Source of the DNA: Planctomycetota bacterium
GTDB lineage: Bacteria > Planctomycetota > UBA11346
Assembly (NCBI GenBank): GCA_038231435.1
Contig: JBBRLJ010000016.1
Span: 1-64,000, forward strand
Length of the DNA stretch: 64,000 nt
Direction: 5' to 3'
The notes below the pieces were generated by a model. The model saw nothing but the letters and a program-made list of their open reading frames with translations, had not been told where the DNA came from and did no database searches. Positions 1 through 28,702 of this stretch are shown here, in pieces. The number at the start of each line of letters is the position of its first letter. Position 1 is the first letter of the stretch. The translations under genes and the position numbers were made by a program.

Positions 1-2758
1 ATCGGCGGGCAATACGGTGACGGTGCACTTCGCGAGCAACGACCCCGCAGGTGTGGTGTCGACTCCTGACCGCGTGTTCGACTCGACGACATGGAACATT
101 CCGCAGACGGTGACGGTGGTTGGCCAGCCGAGCCTGGTGAACGGCGATGTGGCGTACCAGATCCTCAGCACGATCGCGGCGACGAACGAGCCGACCTACC
201 CGATGGCGCTGGCACTGCCCTCGGTGGGCGTGACGAACAAGGATGCGCTGATCCAGGTGAGCACGAATAACGTGCTGGTGACCGAGAACGGTGCGGGCTC
301 GAGCTACACAGTGCGCCTATCGCAGCCGGTAGTGGGCGCCGGCGTGGTCACAGTCTCGATGCTGTCGGCCGACACCACCCAGCTCACGGTGTCGCCGACC
401 TCCCTGAGCTTCGATTCGACCAACTGGAACGCCCCGCAGGTCGTTAGCGTATCCGCTCCTAAGGACGACATCGATCAAGGCGGACACACTCTCGGCATCA
501 CGCTGAGCTCATCAGGCGGTGGATATGGCCAGGTGCCGACAGTGTCGGTCCTCGCTACCATCACCGACTCCGACACCGCGAACATCGTGGTCGCCCCGCT
601 CTCTGGCCTGAACACCACCGAGGCCGGGGGCACGGATACCTTCACCGTCAAGCTCGGCAGCAAGCCAACCAACACGGTGGTGCTCGACATCGCCAGCAGC
701 AGCCCCAAGGGCACGGTCAGTTCTCCGACCCTGACCTTCACGCCGGGCAACTGGTTCACCGCGCAGACCGTGACTGTCACGGGTCAGCCCGACGCGATCC
801 CGATCGTGCAGGGCAACGTGCCCTATCAGATCAACGTCACGGTGGACCAGCCCCTGACGCTCGATGGGCTCTACGACACGAAACCTGCCCAGGCGGTATC
901 CGTCACCAGCCACGATGTCGATGTCGCTGGCGTGACCTTCGCCCTGATCTCGCCGACGGCCACGACCACTGAAGGGCTTGGCGCTGGCCACTCGGTGACC
1001 TTCGACGCGACGCTCGCGAGCCAGCCGACCGGCAATGTCACGGTGACCTTCGCAACCGACAACGCTCTCAAGGGAACGGTGACCGCTGGCGGCAGCGTCA
1101 CCTTCACTCCGGGTGGCTGGAACTCCACGCACTCGGTGACGATCACCGGCGTCGACAACTTCATCGAGGACGGCAGCATCATCTACCATCTGGTGGCCAC
1201 CGTCACCAACAACGGTGGCGACGCGAACTACGCCGTGGGCCCGATCTCCTCGACCGTCATCACCAGCCTCGACGACCTGTTGCCGGTCGCGGTGGTCAAT
1301 CCGGCCGGGCTGACGCTGTTCCGCAACACCAGCGCCGACATCGACACCACGCTGATCTCCGGCACTGATGCCGAGACCCCGACTCCGCTGACCTTCACCG
1401 TCAAGCTGGTGCCTGGGCAGGGTACGCTGCTCAAGCATATGATGGTCGGAGACGCTGGAACGGCGCTGGCGCTGAACGACACCTTCACGCTGGCGGATCT
1501 GACGCCAAACCATCCCGATCCCGCATCGACGGTGTTGGTGCCGTTGCCGCCACGGTCATTGATCACCTACCAGCACAACAACGGCACCAGCGCCACGGAC
1601 GGCTTCGCCTTCACCATCACGGATTCCGACGGTGGCATCAGCGCGCTCGCGGTGTTCAGCATCCACATCACCCTCGGCCAGCTGCCGCCCGTGATCACGC
1701 TCCCCGGCGGCCCGGTGACCTATGCCGAGCTGACGGCCCCCACCGTGATCGATGGCGGCGCGACCCAGAACGATCCGGACAATCTGAATTTCAACTTCGG
1801 CATCCTGACGGTCACGCTCTCGGGCCAGGCCGTCAACGATGTCGCCCACGACGTCATCGGCATCCGCCTGCTGGCGCCGATCGGGGTTGTGGGTACCTCG
1901 GTCGAGTTCAACGGCATCCCGTTCGGCACCATCTCGTCCGACGGCATCGGCCAGCCGCTGATCGTGAACCTCAATGCGAACGCCACCAACGGCGCGCTCC
2001 AGGCCTTGATCCGGAGCCTGACGTTCTCGAACAACTCGACATTCCCGTCCGCCAACTCGCGGACGATGAGCGTCGTGCTCGATGACGGCACCACCGGCAT
2101 CAGCGTGCCCGCCACCAAGCAGATCGACGTCACCCCCGTGCACGACGCGCCGCTGGTCATCGGCACCACGGTCTTCACCGCCCAGGACGTGTCGGTCACG
2201 GGCACCGTCACCCCGTCGAGTCCCGACCTGATCTCGCCGCTGATCGTCTCGGTAGCCAGCCCATCGGTGAAGGGCACGGTGACGATCACCAACGCCGCCA
2301 CCGGCGCCTTCCTGTACACGCCGTTCCCGGGCCAGTCCGGAACCGACACCTTCACGGTCGTGGTCGCCGACGGTGTCGCTCCGGGATTCCTGGTGTCGGC
2401 GCCAGCGACGGTGACCGTGATCATCACCGGCGGATCGGATCTCAGGCCCTGGGCGGCTTCGGATGCGCCGTTGGAGGTGCTGGCCGGCACCTTCCTCAGC
2501 TACACGGTCGACATCGACGTGTCGGACCTGCCCGCGCCGCCGAACCTGACCTTCTCGCTGCTCGGCAACGTGCCGGCGGGCATGTTCATCAATCCCATCC
2601 CGGGCACCAACACGGCGATCATCATCTGGACCGCGGTCACCATCCCGGGCACGGACTACGTCGACATCGGCGTGCTGGTGAAGGACTCGGTCAGCAGTTC
2701 CGCCGGCTTCCAGAAGCTGCTCATCAAGATCGTGCCCTTCCCGGGCGGAGGTGGATGA
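1..2758 (+). CDS. Large surface adhesin-like protein, 5'-truncated (Calx-beta/Ig-like repeats, cadherin/CSPG-like repeat, Big_9-like domain)
   Basis: Frame is open from the window edge. T/V-rich beta protein with four F-x(3-4)-W-N-x-x-Q-T-V-T-V-x-G repeats, then ITYQHNNGTSATDGFAFTITD (CSPG/cadherin-like) and GAFLYTPFPGQSGTDTFTVVVADG (Big_9-like). Confidence 0.8.
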   Translation, partial: SAGNTVTVHFASNDPAGVVSTPDRVFDSTTWNIPQTVTVVGQPSLVNGDVAYQILSTIAATNEPTYPMALALPSVGVTNKDALIQVSTNNVLVTENGAGSSYTVRLSQPVVGAGVVTVSMLSADTTQLTVSPTSLSFDSTNWNAPQVVSVSAPKDDIDQGGHTLGITLSSSGGGYGQVPTVSVLATITDSDTANIVVAPLSGLNTTEAGGTDTFTVKLGSKPTNTVVLDIASSSPKGTVSSPTLTFTPGNWFTAQTVTVTGQPDAIPIVQGNVPYQINVTVDQPLTLDGLYDTKPAQAVSVTSHDVDVAGVTFALISPTATTTEGLGAGHSVTFDATLASQPTGNVTVTFATDNALKGTVTAGGSVTFTPGGWNSTHSVTITGVDNFIEDGSIIYHLVATVTNNGGDANYAVGPISSTVITSLDDLLPVAVVNPAGLTLFRNTSADIDTTLISGTDAETPTPLTFTVKLVPGQGTLLKHMMVGDAGTALALNDTFTLADLTPNHPDPASTVLVPLPPRSLITYQHNNGTSATDGFAFTITDSDGGISALAVFSIHITLGQLPPVITLPGGPVTYAELTAPTVIDGGATQNDPDNLNFNFGILTVTLSGQAVNDVAHDVIGIRLLAPIGVVGTSVEFNGIPFGTISSDGIGQPLIVNLNANATNGALQALIRSLTFSNNSTFPSANSRTMSVVLDDGTTGISVPATKQIDVTPVHDAPLVIGTTVFTAQDVSVTGTVTPSSPDLISPLIVSVASPSVKGTVTITNAATGAFLYTPFPGQSGTDTFTVVVADGVAPGFLVSAPATVTVIITGGSDLRPWAASDAPLEVLAGTFLSYTVDIDVSDLPAPPNLTFSLLGNVPAGMFINPIPGTNTAIIIWTAVTIPGTDYVDIGVLVKDSVSSSAGFQKLLIKIVPFPGGGG

Positions 2759-2811
2759 TGGAAACGCGCACGCCCAGAAAGCCGAACATGCAGCCCAACA
2801 GGCAGCCCATC

Positions 2812-3684
2812 ATGCAGAAGAAGACTCTGATCTCCGCCACGCTCGCCACCGTGATCGCCGTGGCCGCCCTCGGTGGAACCGGCTGCGGCGGGCCTGGTGG
2901 CGGAACCCAGACCAGCGGCCTGCTCCAGGACGTCAGCATCGTCCTGGCGCAGTATCTGGTGCTCGATCTCGGCAGCGGGAAGATCGATGCCCGCTCGGAT
3001 GTCCCAGACCTCGCAACCAACGCTGAGTACCGCCGGACCAAGATGGTATTCAAGGCGATCAGCGCGGGATCGAGCACTTCCGGCCAAGCGGGCGGATCCT
3101 TCTGCGCGCAAGCAGACGAATCACCGAGCGCCAACTCGGTGTCGAAGTACTACATCGCGGTGTACGAGACCACCCAGGCCCAGTGGCAGCTGGTGACCGG
3201 CACGACCCCGTGGGTCAACGTGGTGCCGGCGAGCGTCGTGGGCGGGGTCATCAACGATCCGGATTCGCCCGCCTTCAACATCACCTACAATGCGGCCACC
3301 CAGGCACTGGCGGTCGCCTCGGGCGCTCTGCACACAAAACTCGACCTGCCCACGGACGGCCAGTGGGAGCACGCCTGCCGCGCCGGCGGCGCTGGTCACT
3401 TCTCGTGGGGTTCTAACCATACCGATACGGTTGCCGCCAACTTCGCGCTGGTGGCCGAGACCTCGGGCAACCACGTTGGACCTGATCCGGTCGGCACATT
3501 CGCTCCGAACGCCTTCGGCCTGTACGACATGCACGGGAACGTCTGGGAGATGACCAAAGGCAACACCATCCGTGGCGGATCGTGGAGCGACACCCTGGCC
3601 CAGGCGCGTACCGCCAACAAGTCGTCCATCGATCCCCGCACCGCCCATGCGCTCGTCGGGATGAGGCTCGTGCTGATCCCATGA
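2812..3684 (+). CDS. FGE-sulfatase (SUMF1/EgtB/PvdO-fold) domain lipoprotein
   Basis: Signal peptide ending ALGGTGC; motifs YETTQAQW, LPTDGQWEHACRAG, PNAFGLYDMHGNVWE, RGGSW, GMRLV. Start could alternatively be 2755 or 2788. Confidence 0.85.
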   Translation: MQKKTLISATLATVIAVAALGGTGCGGPGGGTQTSGLLQDVSIVLAQYLVLDLGSGKIDARSDVPDLATNAEYRRTKMVFKAISAGSSTSGQAGGSFCAQADESPSANSVSKYYIAVYETTQAQWQLVTGTTPWVNVVPASVVGGVINDPDSPAFNITYNAATQALAVASGALHTKLDLPTDGQWEHACRAGGAGHFSWGSNHTDTVAANFALVAETSGNHVGPDPVGTFAPNAFGLYDMHGNVWEMTKGNTIRGGSWSDTLAQARTANKSSIDPRTAHALVGMRLVLIP

Positions 3685-3767
3685 GCCGACGCCGTCCATC
3701 ATCCGTGCGGGCTCCCGTGACCGTCAAAAAGGTTTCGCTCCCCGTGCGGCGCCAGACCATCGCGGCG

Positions 3768-4418
3768 ATGAACCGATCATCGCGCGGCGTGCCCACCATC
3801 CTCATTCCATTGCTGCTGTCGGCTCCATTGGGCGCTGCCGAGCTGGTAGTCAGGGATCTCTCGGCCGGCATCGAGCTGCTGCCGACCGGATTCACCTACA
3901 CGCTCACCGATCCCACGGGCTCCCGCACCGGACAGGATTCGTTCTCCTCCGGCTACGGCGCCTTCGTCGGCAGCGTGTGGTCGATCGCTGGGCCCGGCGA
4001 CAGCAGTGGCTTCCTGCTTGGCGGCGATCTCACCTATGCCACCTACGCCTACACCAATGGCGGCGCATATACCACCTACGGCGGACGGTTGCTCGGCGGC
4101 TACGCCTATGCGATCTCGGATCGCTGGACGCTTTCCGCGGTGGTCGACGCGGGAGCTGGCTCAGGGACGTTCAACATCGTCGGAACTTCGGCCTTCAAGA
4201 ACTATACGGCCAATGGCCTGTACTATTCGTATGCTGCCCGCCTCGGCGCGTCCTTCGCGGTGAACGATTCGCTGCTGGTCGACGTCGATGCGGGTTATCG
4301 CAATACCCAAAGCAACCTCAGCGCCGGCGGGACCGATCTGACCCTCACCGGCACGGGCATCTGCGCCGCGATCGGATTCAGGTATCGCTTCTCGAGTTCT
4401 CCGTCGCCTCTCGAGTGA
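3768..4418 (+). CDS. Putative small outer-membrane beta-barrel protein
   Basis: Signal peptide, alternating G/Y/aromatic amphipathic strands, last strand AIGFRYRF. Confidence 0.7.
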   Translation: MNRSSRGVPTILIPLLLSAPLGAAELVVRDLSAGIELLPTGFTYTLTDPTGSRTGQDSFSSGYGAFVGSVWSIAGPGDSSGFLLGGDLTYATYAYTNGGAYTTYGGRLLGGYAYAISDRWTLSAVVDAGAGSGTFNIVGTSAFKNYTANGLYYSYAARLGASFAVNDSLLVDVDAGYRNTQSNLSAGGTDLTLTGTGICAAIGFRYRFSSSPSPLE

Positions 4419-4439
4419 CCCCGTCCCCAGCACTGGAAC

Positions 4440-7400
4440 ATGGCCATGTCTGACAGCAAGAAACCTGATGAGCAGCCGGCGAAGAAGTCGGAATCCGCCG
4501 ACGCCAGCCGGGAGAACGGCAAAGAGACCAAGGTCACGCGCAAGACCCTGTCGTCGGATCCGACGATGCCGATCAAGCTCGACCGCTCGATGTTCAAGAA
4601 GCCGCTGCCGGGCAAGCCGAATCCAGCTGCCACCGCGCCGACCGAACCTGGCGTGCCGGTGCTCAAGGATGAAACCGCTCCTGCCGCGAAATCCAATGCG
4701 ACGACCGGGGTGAAATCGGACGGCAAGTCCGCGAAGACCCAGAGCGGCGACGAGTGGCTCGGCACGGAGCAGACCATGGTCGGCTTGCCGAAGCCGACGA
4801 CCACCAAGATCAAGATCGCATCGATGGACGAGGGCGAGGACTGGCTCGGGCGCGAAGCCACCATGATGCCGACCTCTCGGCCATCCGCCGATGCCGCCGC
4901 CGAGGCGAAAGCCAAGGACAAGGCCGCCGAGGAATGGCTCGGCAACGAGTCGACGATGGTCGGCATGCCGGCCCCGAAGATGACTCCTCCCGGCGGAGCG
5001 GCGGGCGCGGACGAGGAATGGGTGGGACGCGAGGCCACCATGCTCGGCATGCAGGCCGGCGGCGGCGACCTGTCGATCGAGACTCCGGCGGACAAGAAGC
5101 AGGGCTCGACCACTAGCGGCTCGCGCACCGGCTCCGGCACGCGCGGGACCAGCCCGGCCATGGATGACGGTTGGCATCTCAAGGGCAAGCAAGGCCCGCT
5201 GACCGGCAAATCCCTCAACGATTACGAGATCGGCGGCATCCTCGGCCAAGGCGGCATGGGTACCGTCTACCGCGCGCGCCAGATCAGCCTGAAGCGTCGC
5301 GTCGCGCTCAAGGTGCTGCCGCCGCACCTGTCGCACGACCCGAATCTGCGTTCGCGTTTCGAGCAGGAGGCGCGTACCGCCTCGCTCTTGAATACCCCGC
5401 ACGTGGTGCAGGTGTTCGCCGCCGGATGCCAGGGCGACGAAGTGTACTTCGTCATGGAGTACGTCGAAGGCACCGACCTCTCCGAGATCATCAACGAGAA
5501 GAAGGCTCGCAACGAGAAGATGACCGCGGAGGAATCCGCCGGCTACATCCTCCAGGCCGCGCGCGGCCTGGCCGAGGCGGGCAAGCACAACATCGTGCAT
5601 CGCGACATCAAGCCACCCAACCTCATGGTGACCACCAAGGGCGTGGTCAAGATCGCCGACTTCGGCATCTCGAAGGTCACCGGCGAGCAGGGCATGACCA
5701 TGACCGGCACCGCCGTCGGCACGCCGGCGTACTGCAGCCCGGAGCAGGGCCGCGGCGACCTCGTCGACTGCCGGGCGGACATCTATTCCCTGGGCGTGGT
5801 GTTCTTCGAGCTGCTGACCGGCCAGAAGCCGTTCGACGGCACCACCGCGAACGCCCTCATCTACCAGCACAACTACGCCGAGCCGCCGCTGCCGACCTCG
5901 ATCGATGCCTCGATCTCAGAGCAGTACCAGGCCGTGGTGATGAAGTGCCTGCAGAAGGATCCGGCCAAGCGCTACCAGGACGCCGCCGAACTGGTCACCG
6001 ATCTCGAGCGCATCCGCGACGGCAGCATGTCGTTGACGGCGGTGTTCTCGGCCAAATTCGGCACTGGCGCCGACGAGGCGATGTCGCGCTACCTGGGCGT
6101 GAAGAAACGCCGCATGTGGCCGCTGGTCGCGGCGAGCCTGCTGGTCCTCGGCGGCGGCGGCGGCGGATACTACTATTACAGCGAGCTGCAGGAGAAGCGC
6201 CACGTCGACCGCGCGGAGCTCGACCTGGTCACGCGCATGCTCTCGCCCCTGAATCTTGCGGCCCCGGTGCCGGCGAGCGCAGACGGCGATCTGAAGAAAC
6301 TCGCCCGTCTCAAGGGAGAGAAGGACGCGGACGTCATCCGTTACACCGTGAAGCTCAAGAAGGTGCGCGATCTGCAGGCACGCCTCGCGCGACTCGACGC
6401 GGTCGACACGGTCCCCGCCGCCCTGCGTTCCGAGAGTGAGAAGGACCTCGACGGCTACCAGGATCTGGTGGGCACCAAGGGTGCGGACATCGCGCGCTGG
6501 GGCCTGAAGCTCGAGGCAGCCCGCGCCGACGCCGCGCAGCTGCGCACGACCCTCGCCGAAATCGATTCCGCCGCCTACCTCACCGTCGCGATGCGTGAAC
6601 GCCTCGACCCAGGTCTGACCAGGCTCAAGGCCCTGGTCGGCGAAGGCGACGGCGATGTCCAGCGTTGGACGACCAAGTTTGCGGATTTCCAAGAACGGCT
6701 GACGAAGCTCAAGGCGTCGCTGGCGGCGCTCGACGCGCCCGACGCGGTGATCGGCGAGGCCCAGGTCGCACGCCTGGCGTCCGAGCTCGAGTCATTGCGG
6801 CTCGCGACCGGCGGTAGCGACGCCGACGCCCAGCGCTGGCAGGACAAGCTCGCCCAGGCGGGCGAGCGCATCGCGCGCCTGCGCAAGAGCCTGACGCGTC
6901 TCGATGGCGGCGGGGATTACGTGACCACCGCGCTGCATGTCGCGCTCGGGGCCGATCTCGACGAGTACAAGGGCCTGGTGGATGCAGGGGATCCCGAGCT
7001 CAAACGCTGGCTCACGCGCGTGCACGACTCGGTGGAATATGTGAAGCAGCTGCGCGTGCAGCTCGCTCCCCTCGATCAGCCGGAAGCGCTGATGGTGTCG
7101 GATCACCCGATCTACCAGTCGCAGCTCGAGCGGCTGCGCGTTGTCGTGGGCGAGGACGACGGCCAGGTCAAGTCCTGGACGCGCAAGCTCGGAGGCGCGA
7201 AGGATTTCGTCAGCGGCCTGCGCGTGACGCTGGCGCGGCTCGAGAAGGACGAGCCGCTCAAGGTCGAGGAGCAGGACGCGTGCGAGAAGGCTCTGGCGAG
7301 CCTCGACGCGATCGGCGGCCTGTCGAGCGATCAGAAGCGCTTCTACGCCCGCCGCCTGGGCGAAGAGCGGCAGCGCGTGAAGGAGCTGCGCGACGACTTG

Positions 7401-10154
7401 GCGGCGAAGGCTGCGAGCGACCAGAACATCAGCGAGGCCCTGGTTGACGAGATCGACCGCCTGGCGGCGCTGGTCGGCGAGCAGGACCCGGACGTCAAGG
7501 TTTGGCGCGGCAAGGCGGCGACGTACACGCGCCTGCGCAAGGCCCTCATCGTGCTCGATAGCGCGCAGCCGATCCCGAGTCGCGCCGAAGCCATGCTCGA
7601 CGAGTTCGCCAAGATCGTAGGCGAGGGGGACGACAAGATCATCCTGTGGCGGGCGAAGATCGCGCTCGTGTCCCAGCTGCGCCGCGACCTCGCGGATCTC
7701 GACAAGGTTGTGCCGTTGCCTCAGGACGCGGGCGAGAACGTCGGCGAGCTCGCGCGTCAGGTCGGCACCGAGGAGCCCGACGTGAAGCGCTGGCGTGCGA
7801 AGGTCGATCGCGTCGCCGCGCTGCGCACCGCGCTGTCGGTCGAGCTGCGCGATACCTACATCCTGCCGTCGGAGGCGCCGCGCCGCGCCGCGGAGCTGTT
7901 GACCTTGATCGGATCGAGCGAGCAGGACGTCAAGCGCTGGGCCATCCGCGTCGCTGTCCTGCAAGGTCCGACCCAGCCATCGTGGGCCACTCACTACGGC
8001 CGCGACCAGTATGGGCCATGGGCCGAGCTCACGATCAAAGGCGCGACGCAGCGCTTCCGCTACGTGCCGAGCGGCACGTTCACCATGGGCAGCCCCGACA
8101 AGGAGCGTGGGCGCGACAAGGACGAGCCGCGCGTGAAGGTGACGCTGACCCAGTCGTATTGGCTGGCCGACAGCGAATGCACGCAGGGCTTCTTCGTCGC
8201 AGTCGCCGGCAATACGCACGACAGTCGCTTCCGTGGCACTGACAAGCCGGTCGATCGCATCTCGTGGGAGGACTGCCACCGCTTCCTCAACACGCTCAAC
8301 GGCCAAGTCGCCAAGCTCGAAGCCAAGCTGCCGACCGAAGCGCAGTGGGAATACGCCGCGCGCGGCGGCTGCGACGCTCCCTATTCGAGCTACCAGGGCG
8401 CGCTCGAGGAATCCAAGCTCGAAACCATCGGCTGGTTCGCGAAGAATGCGACCAGCGGCACCAAAGACGTGAAGCGTCGTTTCCCCAACGTCCTCGGCCT
8501 TCATGACATGTACGGCAACCTCTGGGAGTGGTGCGAAGACCGCTACGGCAACTACTCGCCGACACCCGTCGAGGATTGGATCGGCCGCGAGGAGGAGAAT
8601 CACGTCGCGCGTGGTGGCTCATGGGGCGACCAGCCCAGCAAGCTGCGCGCCGCCAACCGGCTGTCGGTGAAGTCCGACATGCGCACTGTCTACATCGGCT
8701 TCCGCCTGGCAGTGCCGGTGGAATGGCCCGAGGGCAAGGCCCCGGGCCAGGGCGAGATCACCGTCTCCGCGACCGATCACCCGTACCAGCCGTTCGCTGG
8801 CGACGATACGGATCCGTCGGCGGCACCCTCGTCCGAACCGACTTCTGCGCCGCCGGCTTCAGTTCCCGAAAACCTTCCGACCACGCCGGCTTCCACGCCG
8901 GCGGCGTCCGCGAAGCCCGTGGCCGCTCCGGTCGCGGATGCGGGCAGCCCCGCCGCGGCCCCAGCCGTCGATGCGAAGCAGGTGGAATCATGGCGTGCGG
9001 CCTTGGCCAGCGCCATGACCTCAGATGCATCCCTGGAGAGCGTCGCATCGAGCGTCACTCTCGAAGTTCCGGCTGGCGTGCCGACCCTGCGTGGCCGGGT
9101 GGCCACCAATGTCCAAAAGCAGAAGGCCAGCATCTTCGCCTTCAGGGCCACCGGTGGAAAGAAGGTCGCGAACGAACTCGTGGTCGGTCCCGAGCCCGTC
9201 GCGGTGGCTCGCGTGGTCGAGCCGGCGAAGTCCCTCGCCACCACCGAACCGGTAACGGCCCCAGTCGCCGTCGCTCCCAACGTGAACCCAGCGGCAGCGG
9301 CTCCGGTCGCCGCAGATGCAGACGGCGATGCCGACGCCAAGCGTCTCGATTCCTGGCGCGCATCGTTCGCCGCCGACCTCAAGGCGGACGGAGAACTCTC
9401 GGCCCACGCCGTGCGGCTCGATCAGGAGCACGGATCGCTCGTCGTGCGCGGAAGCGTGGACACGGCGCAGCAGAAGCAGAAGGCCGGCCTGCTGGCCTTC
9501 CGCGCGACCCATGGCACGCGGGTGCTCAATGAGCTGGAGATCGGTTCGCCGCATCCGCTCGCGACTTCCGCGATTCCGGCGGTGACTGAACCGGCGAAGG
9601 CCGCGCCCAAACCGGAATCCGTGCTTCCGGCCGCCCCGACTGCGGCTCCCGCCGTGGTGGCACCGGCTCCAAGCGGCGATCCGACCAGCCAGAAGCCCAC
9701 CGCTCCAGAAGTCGCGCCCGCGGCCCCATCGCCAGCCGTGGTCGCCGAGCCGCTCGTGGCCGTGCCCGCAACGGCAACGTCCGCCCCGGTCACTGTGGCC
9801 AGCGCGACTCCGGCCCAAGCCGCAGCTGCGCTGCCCGAGCCGGTGGTGGCCGTAGCGCCCTCGCCAGTTCCGGCGGCATCTCCGACGACCCAGCCCGAGG
9901 CGGCTGTCGCCGCACTGCCGGCGCCCGAGGCCGCGCCGAGCGAGGAGTTGGCGCGGCTGCGCGGCTCCTTCGACGCGGCGATCGCCAGCGATGGCGGGGC
10001 ACGCGGCGCCAAGGACCTGCGGCTGGTGGAAGCGGTCGGCGCAGTGGTCGTGCGCGGCACCGTCCGCGACGCGGCCGAGCGCAACCGTATCGGACTGATC
10101 GCCTTCCGCGTCAGCGGCAAGCGTATCGTCAACCAGCTGGCGGTGGCTCCTTAG
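4440..10154 (+). CDS. Membrane Ser/Thr protein kinase with helical-repeat ectodomain, FGE-fold domain and three BON-like domains
   Basis: Hanks motifs LGQGGMGTVY, VALK, HRDIKPPN, DFG, GTPAYCSPEQ; TM segment WPLVAASLLVLGGGGGGYYYY; FGE motifs LPTEAQWEYAARG, GLHDMYGNLWEW, RGGSW, GFRL; three xRGxV...V-x-N-E/Q-L modules. Confidence 0.9.
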   Translation: MAMSDSKKPDEQPAKKSESADASRENGKETKVTRKTLSSDPTMPIKLDRSMFKKPLPGKPNPAATAPTEPGVPVLKDETAPAAKSNATTGVKSDGKSAKTQSGDEWLGTEQTMVGLPKPTTTKIKIASMDEGEDWLGREATMMPTSRPSADAAAEAKAKDKAAEEWLGNESTMVGMPAPKMTPPGGAAGADEEWVGREATMLGMQAGGGDLSIETPADKKQGSTTSGSRTGSGTRGTSPAMDDGWHLKGKQGPLTGKSLNDYEIGGILGQGGMGTVYRARQISLKRRVALKVLPPHLSHDPNLRSRFEQEARTASLLNTPHVVQVFAAGCQGDEVYFVMEYVEGTDLSEIINEKKARNEKMTAEESAGYILQAARGLAEAGKHNIVHRDIKPPNLMVTTKGVVKIADFGISKVTGEQGMTMTGTAVGTPAYCSPEQGRGDLVDCRADIYSLGVVFFELLTGQKPFDGTTANALIYQHNYAEPPLPTSIDASISEQYQAVVMKCLQKDPAKRYQDAAELVTDLERIRDGSMSLTAVFSAKFGTGADEAMSRYLGVKKRRMWPLVAASLLVLGGGGGGYYYYSELQEKRHVDRAELDLVTRMLSPLNLAAPVPASADGDLKKLARLKGEKDADVIRYTVKLKKVRDLQARLARLDAVDTVPAALRSESEKDLDGYQDLVGTKGADIARWGLKLEAARADAAQLRTTLAEIDSAAYLTVAMRERLDPGLTRLKALVGEGDGDVQRWTTKFADFQERLTKLKASLAALDAPDAVIGEAQVARLASELESLRLATGGSDADAQRWQDKLAQAGERIARLRKSLTRLDGGGDYVTTALHVALGADLDEYKGLVDAGDPELKRWLTRVHDSVEYVKQLRVQLAPLDQPEALMVSDHPIYQSQLERLRVVVGEDDGQVKSWTRKLGGAKDFVSGLRVTLARLEKDEPLKVEEQDACEKALASLDAIGGLSSDQKRFYARRLGEERQRVKELRDDLAAKAASDQNISEALVDEIDRLAALVGEQDPDVKVWRGKAATYTRLRKALIVLDSAQPIPSRAEAMLDEFAKIVGEGDDKIILWRAKIALVSQLRRDLADLDKVVPLPQDAGENVGELARQVGTEEPDVKRWRAKVDRVAALRTALSVELRDTYILPSEAPRRAAELLTLIGSSEQDVKRWAIRVAVLQGPTQPSWATHYGRDQYGPWAELTIKGATQRFRYVPSGTFTMGSPDKERGRDKDEPRVKVTLTQSYWLADSECTQGFFVAVAGNTHDSRFRGTDKPVDRISWEDCHRFLNTLNGQVAKLEAKLPTEAQWEYAARGGCDAPYSSYQGALEESKLETIGWFAKNATSGTKDVKRRFPNVLGLHDMYGNLWEWCEDRYGNYSPTPVEDWIGREEENHVARGGSWGDQPSKLRAANRLSVKSDMRTVYIGFRLAVPVEWPEGKAPGQGEITVSATDHPYQPFAGDDTDPSAAPSSEPTSAPPASVPENLPTTPASTPAASAKPVAAPVADAGSPAAAPAVDAKQVESWRAALASAMTSDASLESVASSVTLEVPAGVPTLRGRVATNVQKQKASIFAFRATGGKKVANELVVGPEPVAVARVVEPAKSLATTEPVTAPVAVAPNVNPAAAAPVAADADGDADAKRLDSWRASFAADLKADGELSAHAVRLDQEHGSLVVRGSVDTAQQKQKAGLLAFRATHGTRVLNELEIGSPHPLATSAIPAVTEPAKAAPKPESVLPAAPTAAPAVVAPAPSGDPTSQKPTAPEVAPAAPSPAVVAEPLVAVPATATSAPVTVASATPAQAAAALPEPVVAVAPSPVPAASPTTQPEAAVAALPAPEAAPSEELARLRGSFDAAIASDGGARGAKDLRLVEAVGAVVVRGTVRDAAERNRIGLIAFRVSGKRIVNQLAVAP

Positions 10155-10500: not shown

Positions 10501-11232
10501 ATGGCAGCGAATGATCCCCAGGCTCCATCGATCCCTGGTTCCAGCGCCGAATCGCCCGCCGGCTGGGATCCGGTATGGGAGAAGGTCTTCAGCAGCCAGG
10601 CGTGGGGAAAATATCCCGGCGAGGACCTGATCCGCTTCGTTGCCCGGAATTTCTACAAGGCGCCTGACCGCAAGGCCGTGCGTATTCTGGAAGTGGGCAG
10701 CGGGCCGGGCGCGAACCTGTGGTTCGTGGCGCGGGAAGGCTTCAGCGCCTACGGGATCGAAGGATCCGCCACCGCCGTGGCCCAGTCCATCAAACGCCTC
10801 GACGACGAGGTCGGGGGCTGGAGCGGGAAGATCGTGCAAGGCGACTTCAACCGACTGCCGTTCGCCGATGCCGAGTTCGATGCCGTCATCGACATCGAGG
10901 CGATCTACTGCAATGCGTTCGAGAATTCACGGCGCATCATCGCGGGAATACGTCGCGTGCTCAAGCCCCGGGGCCTGTTCTATTCGCGGACCTTCGCGCA
11001 GGGCTGCATGGGCGACGGCACCGGAGAACCGGTCGGGCACCACGCCTGGAAGGTCGCCGAGGGGCCGCTGCTCGGGAAAGGCTATTCGCGATTCAGCGAC
11101 GCCGATGATATCGAGCGGCTATATGGCGAGGGATTCACGATCGAGGAGCTCGAGCTGAACTCGCGTACGGTGGGAGGGCACCGCTCGGGGCATCATGTGA
11201 TCGAGTGGTCGGTCACCGCGCGGAAGGTGTGA
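10501..11232 (+). CDS. Class I SAM-dependent methyltransferase
   Basis: Motif I ILEVGSGPGAN, GIEGS, GDFNRLPFADAEFDAVI, RVLKPRG. Confidence 0.9.
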   Translation: MAANDPQAPSIPGSSAESPAGWDPVWEKVFSSQAWGKYPGEDLIRFVARNFYKAPDRKAVRILEVGSGPGANLWFVAREGFSAYGIEGSATAVAQSIKRLDDEVGGWSGKIVQGDFNRLPFADAEFDAVIDIEAIYCNAFENSRRIIAGIRRVLKPRGLFYSRTFAQGCMGDGTGEPVGHHAWKVAEGPLLGKGYSRFSDADDIERLYGEGFTIEELELNSRTVGGHRSGHHVIEWSVTARKV

Positions 11233-11233
11233 T

Positions 11234-12727
11234 TCAGCTGGCGCCAGGCGTTGGCGCTGCGGCGGCCAGCCGCACAGCCGCCGCCTCGGCCTGCGCGCAT
11301 ATGTCCGGGATGCCCACGCCGTCATAGCCATTGCCGATCAGGGCCAGGCCCGGCACGGCGCGCTCACGCGCGCGGATCGCGGCCACCCGCGCGAGGTGGC
11401 CAAGGTCATACTGCGGCATCGATCGCGGCATGCGCGAGACGCGTGCGAACAGCGGCGGCGAAGCGATGCCCAGCCAGCGGCCGAGCTCCTCGACCGCGAT
11501 GCGGACGAGCGCCTGGTCGTCGTGCGCGAGCGCGCCTGGGCGGAGCGCGCCGCCGACGAACGCGCGGATGAGCGCGATGCCGTCGGGAACCCGACCGGCG
11601 AATTTCCGATCGACGAAGCTCGCGGCGATGAGCTCGCGCCCCTCGACTGCGGGCACCACGAATCCAGCGGCTTCGGGCAGGCGCGCGATGGCCGCGCGCG
11701 GCCAGGCGAGATTGATGGTCGCGACATCGTGGTAGCGGATTGCGCCGAGCTCATCGGCCAAGCTCGCATCCACCGGGCGACACAACGCGGCGGCGACATG
11801 CGCGGGACCTGCGACGACGACGATATCAGCCTGGATCGTTCCCTGATCGGTCATGATACGGAAACCCGATCCGGCGCCGGGAGCCCAGCGCTCGATGGCA
11901 GTCACGCTCGTACCCAGGCGGAGTTCGCAGGCTCGACCCGCATCGATGCCCGCCTCCGGGAGCGACAGCTGCTCGACGAGGCGCTCGATCAGGCGTCCGA
12001 GCCCGCCGCGCAGGCTGGCGAATAGGCCGTAGCGCGCGCCGCTCGCGGGAGCTTCGCGCGCGCGCGCGCGCGCCGCCAGCGACAGGCTGCGATGCGCGCG
12101 TTCCATCTCGGCGATCTGCGGCATCGCGGCGGCGACGCTGAGCAGCTCGGGATCCGCGGTGTGGATGCCCCCGACCAGCGGCTGCGCGAGCCGCGCCAGC
12201 GCCTCGCGGCCCAGGCGCCGGCGCACCAGCGCGGCGAGGCTCTCGTCGGGAGCGTCGGCCGCGCGCCTGGGCAACACCAGATCGATCATCATGCGCAGCT
12301 TGCCCGGCCAGCTCACCAGCGGCGAGGCGAGGAACGGGAGCCAGCGGCCGGGAGCGAGCAGGTAGAAGCCATCGGGGACGGGATGCAGATCCCAGCCGCG
12401 CGCGATCAGGCTGCGGCGCGCTTCCGGACGCGTCGACACCAGCTCGTCGGACAGGCCGAGATCCTCGACCAGGCGCATGCCCGCGGGTTTTGTGCGCAGG
12501 AACGCGTCGGCGCCGTGTTCGAGCAGCAGCTCGCCGGAGACCTCGGCCCAAGCGCCCGCATCCGTGGCACGGCCCGCGGTTTCGCGGCTCGACCACAGCA
12601 GCCCGCCCCAACGCGGCGATGCCTCGAGGATGGTGATCGATGCGTCCGGCAGACGGCGGCGCAAGCGGAAGGCGACCGCGAGTCCGCCGATGCCGCCGCC
12701 GACCACGACGATGCGTTGCGTGGCCAT
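11234..12727 (-). CDS. hemY: Protoporphyrinogen/coproporphyrinogen oxidase (HemY type)
   Basis: VVVGGGIGGL FAD motif, EHGADAF, SMPQYDLGH, GNGYDGVGIPDI; directly downstream of hemE. Confidence 0.9.
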   Translation of the reverse strand: MATQRIVVVGGGIGGLAVAFRLRRRLPDASITILEASPRWGGLLWSSRETAGRATDAGAWAEVSGELLLEHGADAFLRTKPAGMRLVEDLGLSDELVSTRPEARRSLIARGWDLHPVPDGFYLLAPGRWLPFLASPLVSWPGKLRMMIDLVLPRRAADAPDESLAALVRRRLGREALARLAQPLVGGIHTADPELLSVAAAMPQIAEMERAHRSLSLAARARAREAPASGARYGLFASLRGGLGRLIERLVEQLSLPEAGIDAGRACELRLGTSVTAIERWAPGAGSGFRIMTDQGTIQADIVVVAGPAHVAAALCRPVDASLADELGAIRYHDVATINLAWPRAAIARLPEAAGFVVPAVEGRELIAASFVDRKFAGRVPDGIALIRAFVGGALRPGALAHDDQALVRIAVEELGRWLGIASPPLFARVSRMPRSMPQYDLGHLARVAAIRARERAVPGLALIGNGYDGVGIPDICAQAEAAAVRLAAAAPTPGAS

Positions 12728-12732
12728 CCGGT

Positions 12733-13845
12733 TCACCGGACGCGCGCGCTCGCGGCGTGGACGTGCTCGACCAGCGCCTTGGCCTGATCGGGGTCGGTCT
12801 CCTTGAACACGCCATGCCCGAGATTGAAGATGTGACCGGGGCGCGACGCTACGGCGGCGAGTACGCGGTCGGCGCCGGCGAGCAGCCGGTCGCGCGGCGC
12901 CAGCAGCAGGCACGGATCAAGGTTCCCCTGGACGGACAGGTTCTCGCCGCGGGCTCCGCGCAGCGCGAACGCCGCGGCGAGATCGCCAGCGGAGTCGATG
13001 CCGATGACGTCGGCTCCACAGCTGGCGATCAGATCGGTCAGGTGCGAGGCGCCGGCGCCGAACGCGATGCTCGGCACGCCCTCGGGCACGCCCGCGAGCA
13101 GGCGCGTCAGGTGCGGAGCGACGAATTCGCTGAAGTCCTCTCGCGTCAGGGCTCCGGCCCAGCTCTCGAAGACCTGGATGCAGCTCGCGCCCGCGGCGAC
13201 CTGGCGGCCGAGATAGATGATGAGCGTATCGACCAGCACGCGCATCAGTCGATCCCAGGCCGCGCGCTCGCGGTACATGAAGGCCTTGGTGCGTGCGAAC
13301 TGACGGCTGCCGCCGCCCTCGATCGCGTAGGACGCGAGGGTGAACGGTCCGCCGCAGAAGCCGATGCACGGGATCGCGCGCGGCGAGCCGGCGACGGTCA
13401 GCTGCACGGCTTCGTACACGTAGGTGAGATCTGCCGCCGCCTGCACCGGATCAGCGAGCGCGTCGACATGAGCGAGGGAGGCGATCGGCTTGGGCAGGCG
13501 CGGGCCGTCGCCCTCGGCGAATTCGAGGGGCAGGCCGAGCGCCTCGAGGATCACCAGGATGTCGCTGAACACGATCGCCGCGTCCACGCCGAGCCATGCG
13601 CGGGCGTAGAGCGCGACCTCGGCGCACAGCTCGGGCCGCTTGCACAGCGCGAGGAACGAGGAGGCGGATCGGATGCCGCGATAGTGCTGCATGTAGCGGC
13701 CTGCCTGCCGCATCAGCCACACCGGCGTGCGCTCGACCGACTCGCCGCGGCACGCACGTAGGAAGGTGCTGTTCCACAATTCGGCCGGCAGGCCGAGCCG
13801 GTTGCCAGATGCGCGGATGCCTGTTCTCGCCAGTGTCGCGGACAT
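12733..13845 (-). CDS. hemE: Uroporphyrinogen decarboxylase
   Basis: PVWLMRQAGRY, AAIVFSDIL, GGPFTLASY, QGNLDP, HIFNLGHG. Confidence 0.95.
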   Translation of the reverse strand: MSATLARTGIRASGNRLGLPAELWNSTFLRACRGESVERTPVWLMRQAGRYMQHYRGIRSASSFLALCKRPELCAEVALYARAWLGVDAAIVFSDILVILEALGLPLEFAEGDGPRLPKPIASLAHVDALADPVQAAADLTYVYEAVQLTVAGSPRAIPCIGFCGGPFTLASYAIEGGGSRQFARTKAFMYRERAAWDRLMRVLVDTLIIYLGRQVAAGASCIQVFESWAGALTREDFSEFVAPHLTRLLAGVPEGVPSIAFGAGASHLTDLIASCGADVIGIDSAGDLAAAFALRGARGENLSVQGNLDPCLLLAPRDRLLAGADRVLAAVASRPGHIFNLGHGVFKETDPDQAKALVEHVHAASARVR

Positions 13846-14123
13846 GGCGCGCAGCCTAGCAGGCTGGGCCAAAACCACAGCCGGCCAGGATTCAGGCGTT
13901 CGCCATCGCTGCAGTCGCCGACGGTGCCGTGGGGCGGCCGCCTGGTACGCCAGCGCAAGTGCCACCACTTCCACTTCAGGAGGCGAAGCGCAGATGCAGG
14001 CAGCGCGTGGCGCGCAGGGCGACGTCGAGCGCGCGCTCGGTCAGCGGCATGCCGCCATCGTGATCGGGGACCACGGAGGCTCCATCGCCTTTTCGGCGCG
14101 GCTCCGACATGCCCGCTCGCAAT

Positions 14124-15814: not shown

Positions 15815-16459
15815 ATGCGCCACGGCTTCACCCTCATCGAGCTGATGATCGTCATCGCGATCATCGCCATCATCGCGGCCATCGCGATCCCCAATCTGCT
15901 CGAGTCCCGCATCACGTCGCAGGAGTCGGCTGCCGCCGCTGCGCTGAAGAGCGGTCTCCTGCCCGCCGAAGTCCAGTTCCAGGCTGGTGGCTATTCCGAC
16001 GCTGACGGCAACGGCATCGGCACGTATTGCGTCGTCGGCGGCTCGGGCGTCGCGGCTGCTCCGTACAGCACCCTGAGCGGCTCCACCGCGATCAACGCGA
16101 TCACCCTGACCCTGCTCGCTCCGTCGTACGCTGGCGCATCGCCGGTGGTCAGCGGCTACATCTTCAAGCAGCCGATCACCTCCAATCCGCCGAACACCGG
16201 TACTCCTTCGGATGGCAGCGGCGAACGCGCTTGGGGCGTCATCTGCTACCCCGCCGACGATACCCAGGGGCGTCGCTTCTTCGGCATCAACCAGGCGGGC
16301 AACGTGTACAGCTCGCGTCCGAGCGCGACTGCCAATTCCGGTGTCTCCGGCACGGGCGGCGTGCTGACGCTGGCGTGCGGCGCGGGCGCGCTCGACATGT
16401 TCGGCGCGTCGTGCATCTCGGCGCCGGTCCCCGCGACCTACACGCCGTACAGGAAGTGA
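15815..16459 (+). CDS. Type IV pilin-like protein 1 (prepilin N-terminal methylation motif)
   Basis: MRHG/FTLIELMIVIAIIAIIAAIAIP; RBS AGGAG; C-terminal W-x-x-x-x-YP...G-R-x-F-x-I-N-Q-x-G head motif. Confidence 0.9.
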   Translation: MRHGFTLIELMIVIAIIAIIAAIAIPNLLESRITSQESAAAAALKSGLLPAEVQFQAGGYSDADGNGIGTYCVVGGSGVAAAPYSTLSGSTAINAITLTLLAPSYAGASPVVSGYIFKQPITSNPPNTGTPSDGSGERAWGVICYPADDTQGRRFFGINQAGNVYSSRPSATANSGVSGTGGVLTLACGAGALDMFGASCISAPVPATYTPYRK

Positions 16460-16489
16460 TCCGCGGCATCGCTCCGGCGATGCCCTCAG

Positions 16490-16522
16490 AAAAGGGGGTG
16501 GGCTTCGGCCCACCCCTTTTTT
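16490..16522 (+). terminator. Intrinsic terminator after pilin 1
   Basis: GGGGTGGGC-TTCG-GCCCACCCC-TTTTTT, preceded by an A-tract; a second hairpin GGCATCGC-TCCG-GCGATGCC lies at 16465-16484. Confidence 0.9.
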
Positions 16523-16556
16523 GTCGCCACTCACTGCTCGCCTTGCGATCGGGGAA

Positions 16557-16572
16557 TGGCACGACGCTTGCT
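16557..16572 (+). promoter_or_regulatory. Sigma54 -24/-12 promoter of pilin 2
   Basis: TGGCACGACGCTTGCT matches the TGGCACG-N4-TTGCW consensus exactly. Confidence 0.8.
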
Positions 16573-16615
16573 TTAAAAACTTTCGTACCCAACATCCTCA
16601 CGCGGGAGTAATCAC

Positions 16616-17260
16616 ATGCGCCACGGCTTCACCCTCATCGAGCTGATGATCGTCATCGCCATCATCGCCATCATCGCCGCGATCGCGATCCCGAACCTGC
16701 TCGAATCGCGCATCACCTCACAGGAATCGGCGGCTGCTGCGGCGCTCAAGAGCGGTCTGCTGCCAGCCGAGGTGCAGTTCCAGGCCGGCGGCTACGCCGA
16801 CGCGAACGGCAACGGCATCGGCACCTACTGCGTCGTCGGCGCCTCGGGCGTGGCCGCGGCTCCGTACAGCACCCTGAGCGGTTCCACGGCGATCAACGGC
16901 ATCACCCTCACTCTGCTCGCTCCGTCCTATGCCGGTGGATCGCCGGTAGTGAGCGGCTACATCTTCAAGCAGCCGATCACCGCCAACCCGCCCGCGGTCG
17001 CGACCCCTTCCGATGGCAGCGGCGAACGCGCGTGGGGGGTCATCTGCTACCCCGCCGATGATACCCAGGGCCGTCGCTTCTTCGGCATCAACCAGGCTGG
17101 CAACGTGTACAGCTCGCGCCCGAGCGCGACCGCCAATTCCGGAGTATCCGGCACCGGCGGCGTGTTGACGCTGGCATGCGGCGCTGGCGCGCTCGACATG
17201 TTCGGCGCCTCGTGCATTTCCGCGCCGGTTCCGGCTACCTATACGCCTTATCGGAAGTGA
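16616..17260 (+). CDS. Type IV pilin-like protein 2
   Basis: Same 214-aa length as pilin 1, 9 aa differences by hand count; RBS GGGAG. Confidence 0.9.
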   Translation: MRHGFTLIELMIVIAIIAIIAAIAIPNLLESRITSQESAAAAALKSGLLPAEVQFQAGGYADANGNGIGTYCVVGASGVAAAPYSTLSGSTAINGITLTLLAPSYAGGSPVVSGYIFKQPITANPPAVATPSDGSGERAWGVICYPADDTQGRRFFGINQAGNVYSSRPSATANSGVSGTGGVLTLACGAGALDMFGASCISAPVPATYTPYRK

Positions 17261-17289
17261 TCGGCGGGCCGCACGGCATGCCTGCGCGA

Positions 17290-17318
17290 GGGGCGGGCTC
17301 ACGGCCCGTCCTTTTTTT
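17290..17318 (+). terminator. Intrinsic terminator after pilin 2
   Basis: GGGCGGGC-TCACG-GCCCGTCC-TTTTTTT. Confidence 0.85.
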
Positions 17319-17390
17319 GTCATCGAGGTCGCGAAGGCCGCCAAAATCCGTCAATCACGGGTGATTCAGAGTCGATAGCCGCGGTATGTA

Positions 17391-17406
17391 CGGCACGGTA
17401 GTTGCT
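17391..17406 (+). promoter_or_regulatory. Sigma54 -24/-12 promoter of pilin 3
   Basis: CGGCACGGTAGTTGCT: GG-N10-GC with TTGCT. Confidence 0.75.
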
Positions 17407-17447
17407 CTTCCGTACAGCATATGAAGCCACATCTCTCGGGGGTCACC

Positions 17448-18092
17448 ATGCGCCACGGCTTCACCCTCATCGAGCTGATGATCGTCATCGCGATCATCGC
17501 GATCATCGCCGCCATCGCGATCCCCAACCTGCTGGAATCGCGGGTGTCCGCCCAGGAATCGTCCGCCGCCGCCGCGCTCAAGAGCGGCATCCTGCCCGCT
17601 GAGGTGCAATTCCAGGCGGGCGGATATTCCGATGCCGACGGCAATGGCATCGGCACGTACTGCGTGATCAACGCCTCCGGAGTCAGCCTCGCGCCATTCA
17701 ACACCCTCTGCGGCTCGGCACAGATCAGCTCCATCACCCTGACCCTGCTCGCGCCGTCCTACGGTGGCGCGTCGCCGGTGATCAGCGGCTATAACTTCAA
17801 GCAGCCGATCACGGCCAATCCGCCTATCGTAGCGACCCCGACCGATGGCAGCGGGGAGCGCACCTGGGGCATCATCGCCTATCCGACCGACGACAATCAA
17901 GGGCGTCGCTTCTTCGGCGTCAACCAGGCCGGCAACGTCTTCGCGTCGCGCCCCAGCCCGACCGCGAATTCCGGCGTCTCGGGAACCGGAGGCATCAATA
18001 CCATCGCCTGCGGTCCCGGCGCTTTCGACATGTTCGGCGCGTCGTGCATCTCGGCACCGCTCGCTTCGACGTATCTGCCCTATCGCCGGTGA
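17448..18092 (+). CDS. Type IV pilin-like protein 3
   Basis: MRHGFTLIEL start at 17448 gives 214 aa, about 79% identical to pilin 1 by hand count. Confidence 0.9.
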   Translation: MRHGFTLIELMIVIAIIAIIAAIAIPNLLESRVSAQESSAAAALKSGILPAEVQFQAGGYSDADGNGIGTYCVINASGVSLAPFNTLCGSAQISSITLTLLAPSYGGASPVISGYNFKQPITANPPIVATPTDGSGERTWGIIAYPTDDNQGRRFFGVNQAGNVFASRPSPTANSGVSGTGGINTIACGPGAFDMFGASCISAPLASTYLPYRR

Positions 18093-27622: not shown

Positions 27623-28692
27623 GCGGCTTCGACTCGATATCTTCGTCATCGGCAGTGTCGTTCGCGCGTTGCGCGCTGCTCATGCTCGCGATGGTCTCGC
27701 TGTCGGCGGCGTCCGAGCCGGCGCCGGCGACCATCACCACCACCGAGGGCAAGAGTTTCGAGAAGGCATTCGTGGTGAGCGAATCCATGGACGGCATCGC
27801 CTGGGTGATCGACGACCCGCGCTCGACCGCCAAGTTCGAGAAGAAGGCCGGGCAATACAGCGTCGAGTACAAGCAGTCGCGCAACACCAGCCTGCTCAAG
27901 GGCGACAACGCCAGCGGCAAGGATCCCGAGGGTGCGATCGTCTCGTACACCCAGGCGCTCGCCGAGTGCAAGTATGACTGGGAGCGCGAGCACGCGTACG
28001 TGGGCATCGCGCGCGCCGCCGAGGTCTCGAAGAAGTACGACGATGGCATCCAGGCGATCCAGGGTCTCGAGAAGGAATTCCCGAAGAGCCTGCGTCTACC
28101 CGAGGCGACCTATCTCAAGGGCCGCCTGCTCGTCCTCAAGGGGGACAAGGACGGCGCGCTCAAGGTCATGCAGGGGCTGCGCGGCCACGACAAGGACTGG
28201 GGTGTCGGCGCTGGCGCGCTCGGCGTGCTCGGCATCGGCGAGCTGCTCTCGGCCGACACCAAGTTCAAGGAGGCCGCCACCGAGCTGGCGGGATGGTTCC
28301 CGGCCAAGATCAATCCGGCGACCAACCCCGACGAATTCGCCAGGATCGGCCTGGCGCTCGCGCAGTACGAGCTGAAGAGCGGCGGCGAGGCCAACGCCAT
28401 CGTCGACTTCCGCACCGTCGCGTTCTCGCCCTGCTCGCCCGACCAGCAGGCGCGCGCGCACCTCGGTTGGGCGCGTCTGCTCGCCGACCAGGCCGTACCT
28501 GCCAGCCAGCTCTCGGCCTTCGACCACGCGGCCATCGCCGCGTCGCTGAAGGGCCAGAACGATCCGTCCACCAGGACCGAGGCGGTCCGTCTCGCCACCG
28601 GGCTGGTCGCGAAGATCAAGGAGCAGGGCGCCAACGACAATGCGAAGAACGCGCTGCAGATCGAATACAAGACCTACCTATCCAGGTTCTAG
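27619..28692 (+). CDS. Secreted TPR protein
   Basis: ATGA overlap with the upstream gene, signal peptide, LEKEFPKSLRLPEATYLKG TPR-like motif. Confidence 0.75.
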   Translation: MSGFDSISSSSAVSFARCALLMLAMVSLSAASEPAPATITTTEGKSFEKAFVVSESMDGIAWVIDDPRSTAKFEKKAGQYSVEYKQSRNTSLLKGDNASGKDPEGAIVSYTQALAECKYDWEREHAYVGIARAAEVSKKYDDGIQAIQGLEKEFPKSLRLPEATYLKGRLLVLKGDKDGALKVMQGLRGHDKDWGVGAGALGVLGIGELLSADTKFKEAATELAGWFPAKINPATNPDEFARIGLALAQYELKSGGEANAIVDFRTVAFSPCSPDQQARAHLGWARLLADQAVPASQLSAFDHAAIAASLKGQNDPSTRTEAVRLATGLVAKIKEQGANDNAKNALQIEYKTYLSRF

Positions 28693-28702
28693 CGAGACGA
28701 CC

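Follow-up and report, generated by a model that had tools for sequence, protein, structure and literature searches.

A conserved, lineage-restricted planctomycete gene module of giant adhesins, an FGE-fold lipoprotein, a small barrel and stalked receptor kinases as a candidate trans-envelope signalling pathway

What might a membrane-bound Ser/Thr kinase of the planctomycetes read on the far side of its own membrane, and through which partners? The question is raised by the opening 64 kb of contig C16 (JBBRLJ010000016.1) of a Planctomycetota genome, G000 (88% complete; 4002 called proteins), the whole of which stretch is called here the window; its position 1 is the contig's first base. Four co-directional open reading frames (ORFs) stand at its start, where the initial annotation had placed them and where the ORF list and Pfam confirm them. 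They encode the end of a giant adhesin-like protein, a lipoprotein with the fold of formylglycine-generating enzymes (FGE), a small outer-membrane beta-barrel, and a Hanks kinase with a long outer stalk and an FGE domain of its own, a combination read in that annotation as a trans-envelope sensing system. The module proves to be real, conserved and restricted to one Planctomycetota family. The four genes do not complete it, since a fifth, encoding a kinase that ends in an FHA domain (Pfam), had been overlooked. Outside-in signalling from a displayed adhesin to a kinase cascade is the best reading of the module, and one to which we give an even chance.

Relatives' loci were picked from match lists and their genes predicted with a simple in-house caller; the named relatives are Planctomycetota metagenome-assembled genomes. 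Of the family's 47 other genomes, 40 gave a match to the kinase stalk, 42 to the barrel, 43 to the C-terminal cadherin-like domain (CTD) of the adhesin, some of these last being weak, and 43 to the C-terminal region of the kinase-FHA protein. Stalk, barrel and CTD are all without match in G003 (90% complete) and G024 (86%), as are stalk and barrel in G009 (91%), where the CTD match is weak. A barrel profile, for which no more than 10 candidates were scored in each genome, found its protein in 14 of the 15 genomes covered within the family and in none of 285 genomes from other families of the phylum. A barrel lies within 35 kb of the stalk in 51 of the 75 best stalk matches, and the 24 stalks without a nearby barrel are all at most 10 kb from a contig start, although not every contig's extent was checked. 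Four gene orders occur (adhesin-lipoprotein-barrel-kinase, kinase-adhesin-lipoprotein-barrel, barrel-kinase-adhesin-lipoprotein and barrel-adhesin-lipoprotein-kinase), and despite this shuffling two couplings recur, that of the CTD-bearing cargo with the lipoprotein and that of the barrel with the kinase. The homologues are thus syntenic across the family, on which the initial annotation had staked its reading.

In the window the genes are tightly packed: the adhesin stop overlaps the lipoprotein start (2755-2758), the barrel gene has an in-frame ATG that overlaps the lipoprotein stop, and the gap between barrel and kinase is 21 bases. Counts of promoter-like sites (2; shuffle mean 0.9) and of terminator-like sites (3, with 0 on the + strand; mean 4.5) were uninformative.

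The adhesin-like ORF (2..2758, + strand) is open at its 5' end because the window begins at the first base of C16, and it supplies the C-terminal 918 amino acids (aa) of a giant surface protein, with Ig-like repeats, Cadherin_3 and Big_9 (Pfam) and a terminal domain. It had been described as an Ig/Calx-like adhesin; the Ig-like repeats are there, and no Calx-beta Pfam match occurs in the window, one being present in an adhesin-like ORF of the same genus. Full-length adhesins of relatives mostly measure about 1,200-7,000 aa and begin with signal-peptide-like N-termini (14 inspected). The N-terminal regions of the cargo vary and include RCC1 propellers, PATR and beta-helix; one cargo is a small phospholipase D-like (PLD) protein. 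The missing 5' part and the linked kinase-FHA gene were sought in G000, where no contig end overlaps C16; the neighbour genes of same-genus genomes map to the start of contig C69, whose terminus we take to resemble a transposase fragment.

The CTD at the end of this protein (2429..2755, + strand; about 108 aa), with S-x-P-P and Q-P motifs and a Gly-rich end, is a candidate lipoprotein-binding tag. Its model is a cadherin-like sandwich (pLDDT 92.5; cadherin fold at Z 11.1, root-mean-square deviation (rmsd) 3.5, 102 aligned). The domain is C-terminal in 112 of 116 matches, and the lipoprotein gene follows directly 3' of the CTD gene in 92 of 107, a count from which 9 rows without room were dropped and in which one locus appears twice; outside the loci used to build the profile the figure is 62 of 77. 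Adhesin-lipoprotein pairs have also been duplicated as units (L056 and L058). As matches outside the family score at most 52 bits and often number several per protein (25 of 285 genomes), the CTD is a specialised Ig repeat. Across 86 pairs the distance matrices of CTD and lipoprotein correlate at r 0.70 (shuffles at most 0.10), 41 pairs share a nearest neighbour, and the top mutual-information z of their covariation is 8.0 vs at most 4.9; we dropped covariation as evidence of binding, adjacent-gene co-inheritance and a clade-specific insertion accounting for the signal.

At L073:11152-13116 a 378-aa PLD protein carries the CTD and is followed by its own FGE lipoprotein, which could represent enzyme display or an effector-immunity-like pair; no kinase match was found in the 19 kb around it. 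G017 (L062-L075) shows a large expansion, with 20 CTD, 14 barrel and 14 stalk matches, cargo genes arrayed in tandem, and kinases whose stalks are shorter.

The lipoprotein gene (2755..3684, + strand; FGE-sulfatase E 5e-27) probably starts at 2812 and encodes a signal peptide ending in GTG-C, a predicted lipobox, with the lipidated Cys at 2884-2886. An outer-membrane location is predicted, Asp standing at the +2 residue in 1 of 29 members. The family carries an H-x-L-x-G-x-R motif near the C-terminus and an invariant His (30 of 30 rows), its FGE domain forms a clade separate from the kinase FGE domains (support 99/98), and its profile finds PorK and TvpA tied as best PDB sequence match. Catalytic formylglycine-generating enzymes have two active-site Cys after RGGSW. 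The motifs quoted in the initial annotation, RGGSWSDT in the lipoprotein and RGGSWGDQ in the kinase, are both present, and the absence of Cys claimed there holds almost throughout: a Cys pair within 14 residues after GGSW occurs in 1 of 84 lipoproteins and in 0 of 27 kinase domains. Membership in the catalytic enzymes thus failed, and the earlier view of both domains as binding modules agrees with their matches to binding-type FGE/C-type lectin (CLec) folds. PorK, too, is without the active-site Cys pair (PMC12365241).

The barrel gene (3681..4418, + strand; possible ORF starts 3582, 3681 and 3768, mature protein from about 3837) matches OMP_b-brl at E 3e-7 and encodes a conserved C-terminal P-x-x-L-E tail. 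No alignment column reaches 15% Cys across 25 barrels, no PDB sequence match is better than E 0.01, and the Atlas neighbours are generic small barrels. In 27 of 54 loci its gene is the immediate 5' neighbour of the kinase gene, and L179, L196 and the truncated L178 hold barrel and kinase without adhesin or lipoprotein matches. At least six remoter barrel paralogues are found elsewhere in G000, on C51, C9, C4, C20, C11 and C24.

The kinase gene (4440..10154, + strand; 1904 aa) has Pfam matches to Pkinase at residues 262-513, to FGE at 1209-1424 and to three BON domains. Its catalytic domain (5223..5978, + strand) keeps GxGGMG, HRDIKPxN and DFG intact, as do all 28 kinase rows. A single transmembrane segment is placed after KKRR, at approximately 6117..6182 (+ strand), from the sequence and homologous segments in relatives; in the window kinase it is Gly-rich and below the hydropathy threshold of 1.5, which 25 of the 28 rows exceed at the same place. 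Beyond it runs the stalk (6207..7964, + strand), 12 repeats of about 48 aa, each with a long and a short helix. Its length is conserved: 22 of 23 measurable kinases have stalks of 580-629 aa at 26-56% identity to that of the window, some remoter matches being shorter. The ectodomain model shows 12 long/short helix pairs and the FGE domain (pLDDT 89.9), with an overall shape that is unsure because its pTM is 0.50; by a rough estimate, the stalk could span about 18-30 nm across the periplasm. Its profile gave 94 matches among 1.84 billion representatives; 46 of these carry both sets of motifs, kinase and FGE, and fragments account for many of the rest. The repeat had no match in Pfam or the PDB search and no usable Atlas match, and a fold search in which the stalk was part of the whole ectodomain returned nothing for it above Z 6.6.

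At the stalk tip sits the FGE/CLec-fold domain (7980..8729, + strand; Pfam and fold search), whose best fold matches are TvpA (Z 33.3, rmsd 1.6, 227 aligned), PvdO (30.6) and PorK (26.6). Three BON domains with Pro/Ala linkers follow (8997..10154, + strand; Pfam). FGE domain, stalk and BON domains are all as first annotated, but BON is not a defining part. It is a genus-level addition: of 27 module kinases, the 2 that have it belong to the same genus as the window; in the relative P0039, LysM takes its place beyond the tip. Both kinds of tail bind the envelope, which places the tip itself in the periplasm. On the cytoplasmic side, the same annotation missed four tandem W-x-G-x-[DE]-x-T motifs in the N-terminal tail (4755..5048, + strand), which from their sequence are candidate phosphothreonine docking sites. 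Among 27 module kinases, 17 have 3-6 copies of the motif; in G000 it matches 15 of the 4002 proteins and is repeated in the window kinase only. A stalk kinase (P0046) and a module lipoprotein (P0165), both on contigs of length 8388, are source-labelled Caulobacterales, by mis-binning or transfer.

The kinase-FHA protein keeps G-[KR] and SRxH, and NGT in most cases. For 24 of its 47 strong matches a stalk or a barrel is encoded no more than 35 kb away, and in 10 of 15 further strong matches examined its gene stands head-to-head with an adhesin-like gene. At L056:3161-5854 and L060:15297-18053 an FHA-SpoIIE phosphatase-kinase fusion (Pfam for L056) replaces it.

Some copies of the module neighbour a type VI secretion system (T6SS). 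VipB/TssC was matched in 29 of 48 family genomes; of the 42 rows, 6 have a stalk kinase no more than 35 kb away and 8 have one or the other kinase in that range, the rough chance expectation being at most 1.3, on linked contigs that were picked by comparing lists and include non-independent kin (G022 and G030 are of one genus). In L178 and L179, barrel and kinase come directly after tssB-C-F-G on the same strand, and the module of L077/L182 borders directly on a tssJKLM-BC-hcp-FG-clpV cluster. The module-bearing genomes G016 (94% complete), G021 (91%), G031 (90%), G019 and G007 (both 89%) gave no VipB match. The tss genes of G000 itself are on C3, beside a different kinase: at L198:14339-19491, tssB, C, F and G stand head-to-head with the gene for a membrane kinase of 1038 aa, the outer part of which resembles beta-propeller repeats, and tssJKLM were not noticed in the 50 kb listed around them.

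Taking the genes, domains, folds, synteny, pairing, stalk length and motifs as observed, the contacts, stimulus and output, together with the sites of phosphorylation and the cargo export route, may be pictured as follows. Large surface proteins, exported by Sec, would bear the CTD as a terminal tag, and the cognate FGE lipoprotein encoded just 3' would bind it and hold the cargo at the outer membrane. The small barrel would pair with the single-pass Hanks kinase, whose stalk of fixed length would carry the FGE tip across the periplasm, probably to the barrel C-tail and/or the lipoprotein. When the cargo meets a surface or another cell, the kinases would cluster and phosphorylate Thr in the W-x-G-x-[DE]-x-T tail repeats; these could then recruit the neighbouring kinase-FHA protein, which would relay the signal, and in some lineages the output may be the T6SS. 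The fuller claim, of a new adhesion receptor in which interchangeable giant adhesins, a CTD/lipoprotein anchoring route not described before, a barrel-coupled, periplasm-spanning receptor kinase and a two-kinase cascade with kinase-FHA report cell contact across both membranes, with some lineages wired to the T6SS, is offered tentatively, as somewhat more apt to be wrong than right.

Several observations weigh against outside-in signalling. The W-x-G motif is absent from 9 of 27 module kinases; barrel-kinase adjacency is absent in 15 of the 39 loci with room for it; and 15 of 107 CTD matches have no lipoprotein directly behind. G000 has no linked kinase-FHA gene, its expected position lying beyond the contig edge, and the paralogue on C43 is unlinked and weaker (E 5e-31 vs about 1e-54 in same-genus genomes). 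Kinase-transmembrane-FGE fusions are common without such an operon: G000 itself has five further ones, none with a stalk, and the tree does not separate the FGE domains of module kinases from those of other kinase-FGE fusions. There is also a gap in topology, since lipoprotein and CTD may sit on either face of the outer membrane, and a barrel of 8-strand size is unlikely to pass folded cargo. Regarding export routes, SprA_N (PF14349) and ShlB gave no match in G000, control genomes being likewise silent, and the genome has five secretin loci and three Omp85 genes.

The same pairings of CTD with lipoprotein and of barrel with kinase would fit a monitor of export. In that case the lipoprotein would serve the CTD in the periplasm as its cognate chaperone or carrier, and the kinase tip would detect the barrel's state or cargo that has stayed unexported or been anchored wrongly; the kinase-FHA pair would then tune production or export, and contact outside the cell would go unreported. 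The diversity of the cargo, down to the PLD protein of L073 with no kinase match around it, suits a general cargo-handling tag, and type B CTD cargo of the T9SS (type IX secretion system) binds cognate PorP-like barrels (PMC9143113). A stalk of fixed length and a second kinase with an FHA domain, however, suit fast post-translational signalling, and no transcription regulator was seen to recur beside the module when the ORF lists were read, without a systematic scan; we regard such a monitor as rather unlikely, though a serious competitor. If instead triggering the T6SS were the main role, with the adhesin as contact sensor and the module as a planctomycete counterpart of TagQR-PpkA-Fha1, the excess of VipB rows near the kinases over chance and the tss-adjacent modules would be expected. 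Yet 36 of the 42 VipB rows lie away from stalk kinases, five genomes 89-94% complete hold the module without a VipB match, the tss genes of G000 are on another contig, and two of the linked genomes share a genus, which together make this role distinctly unlikely.

It is less probable again that the genes merely share their regulation as an operon for surface biogenesis and that their products are not physically coupled, so that the kinase, one of many planctomycete kinase-FGE receptors, would sense a ligand of its own or the stalk would serve as a structural spacer. Kinase-FGE fusions are common (PMC11032199) and the gene order is shuffled, as that account would have it; against it, so narrow a stalk family (94 matches) travels with the barrel, and the linkage has outlasted many rearrangements, duplications and joint losses. 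That the FGE domains are PvdO-like enzymes modifying the cargo seems very improbable: PvdO is the second-best fold match and the lipoprotein His is invariant, but NCBIfam PvdO scores are 57.5 and 85.1 vs a cut-off of 500, with all NCBIfam models far below theirs, there is no Cys pair, and the top fold match is the ligand-binding TvpA. Signalling from adhesin to kinases keeps its place as the best reading. Planctomycetes have many membrane Ser/Thr kinases (PMC11032199), and the locus offers one of them candidate partners at every envelope layer together with a candidate cytoplasmic reader. If true, the signalling model would also add a surface-display route based on a cargo tag and a lipoprotein.

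Other genes lie further along the window. At 10501-13974, an S-adenosylmethionine methyltransferase gene begins 346 bases after the kinase, a neighbour that the modules of relatives were not noticed to have, and a uroporphyrinogen decarboxylase gene and a flavin amine-oxidase-family gene lie on the opposite strand. At 15815-18092 three pilin-like genes stand in tandem; their products bear a methylation motif at the N-terminus, and the first two are identical at 205 of 214 residues. At 23837-29965, a 1261-aa helical signal-peptide protein with no Pfam match at E 1e-8 is encoded ahead of two ORFs, each some 440 aa long, of which the second likewise gave no Pfam match.

How does the module compare with known systems? 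The initial annotation knew of no named system with this combination, and no description of the operon as a whole was found in the open-access literature, supplements excluded, among which the architecture tables of PMC11032199 may bear on the kinase. A trans-envelope pathway of FGE protein, Hanks kinase and FHA protein is nevertheless known (below). The kinase-FGE fusion alone is ordinary in planctomycetes, the full gene combination is not. FGE ranks third among the accessory domains of planctomycete kinases and is mostly periplasmic in single-pass kinases (PMC11032199), and Chlamydia Pkn1 has the same N-terminal Hanks kinase and C-terminal FGE domain, but no transmembrane helix (10.64898/2026.09.24.754023). 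The available parts of the texts on Pkn1 and on planctomycete kinases (PMC11032199) mention neither a stalk nor an adhesin/lipoprotein/barrel operon. The tip also resembles Treponema TvpA, its top match, a target of a diversity-generating retroelement with an FGE-type CLec fold in ligand-binding use (PMC10907252, PMC7159879); unlike in such targets, the region after RGGSW is conserved in the module and not hypervariable. The module was rejected as a target of this kind, no template repeat (blastn, both 3' regions) or reverse transcriptase motif being found in G000, 88% complete.

With the T9SS/gliding core of Bacteroidota (PorK/GldK, the 8-stranded barrel PorG, SprB-SprF; PMC12365241, PMC12635249, PMC9143113) the module shares a Cys-less FGE lipoprotein, a small barrel with a conserved C-tail, and giant adhesins that carry a tag at the C-terminus and have a cognate gene as partner. 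It differs in that the inner-membrane partner is a kinase and not a motor, and the cognate partner of the cargo a lipoprotein and not a barrel. GldK/PorK family membership was rejected for the lipoprotein (61.1 bits vs a cut-off of 350), and because barrel and tail have no conserved Cys, a PorG-like disulfide to the FGE lipoprotein is not expected.

By analogy, the module works most like TagQ/TagR-PpkA-Fha1, the threonine-phosphorylation pathway of the Pseudomonas aeruginosa H1-T6SS (PMC13713981, PMC13411936). There TagR, an FGE protein, connects a lipoprotein of the outer membrane with the kinase PpkA and Fha1, and its FGE domain is modelled to bind and dimerise PpkA (PMC13713981); TssW-PpkA-Fha is a related pathway (PMC12607579). 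Both systems have an FGE protein at the outer membrane, a location that is predicted in the module, an inner-membrane Hanks kinase with intact motifs and, in many family loci, a linked FHA protein, and some module copies adjoin T6SS genes, though most do not. The module is not a member of that pathway, because it is not dedicated to the T6SS. Its FGE protein, unlike TagR, is itself a lipoprotein paired one to one with CTD cargo; its kinase has a 12-repeat stalk and its own FGE tip where PpkA has a disordered linker (PMC13713981); and its FHA domain, unlike Fha1, is fused to a second kinase, with the barrel and giant adhesins added. TagQ, TagS/TagT and the ABC-transporter pair were not noticed in the locus lists, no profile search having been aimed at TagQ or TagS/TagT. 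If the proposed signalling is true, the module would extend the TagR-PpkA-Fha logic from the sensing of membrane damage to sensing through adhesins.

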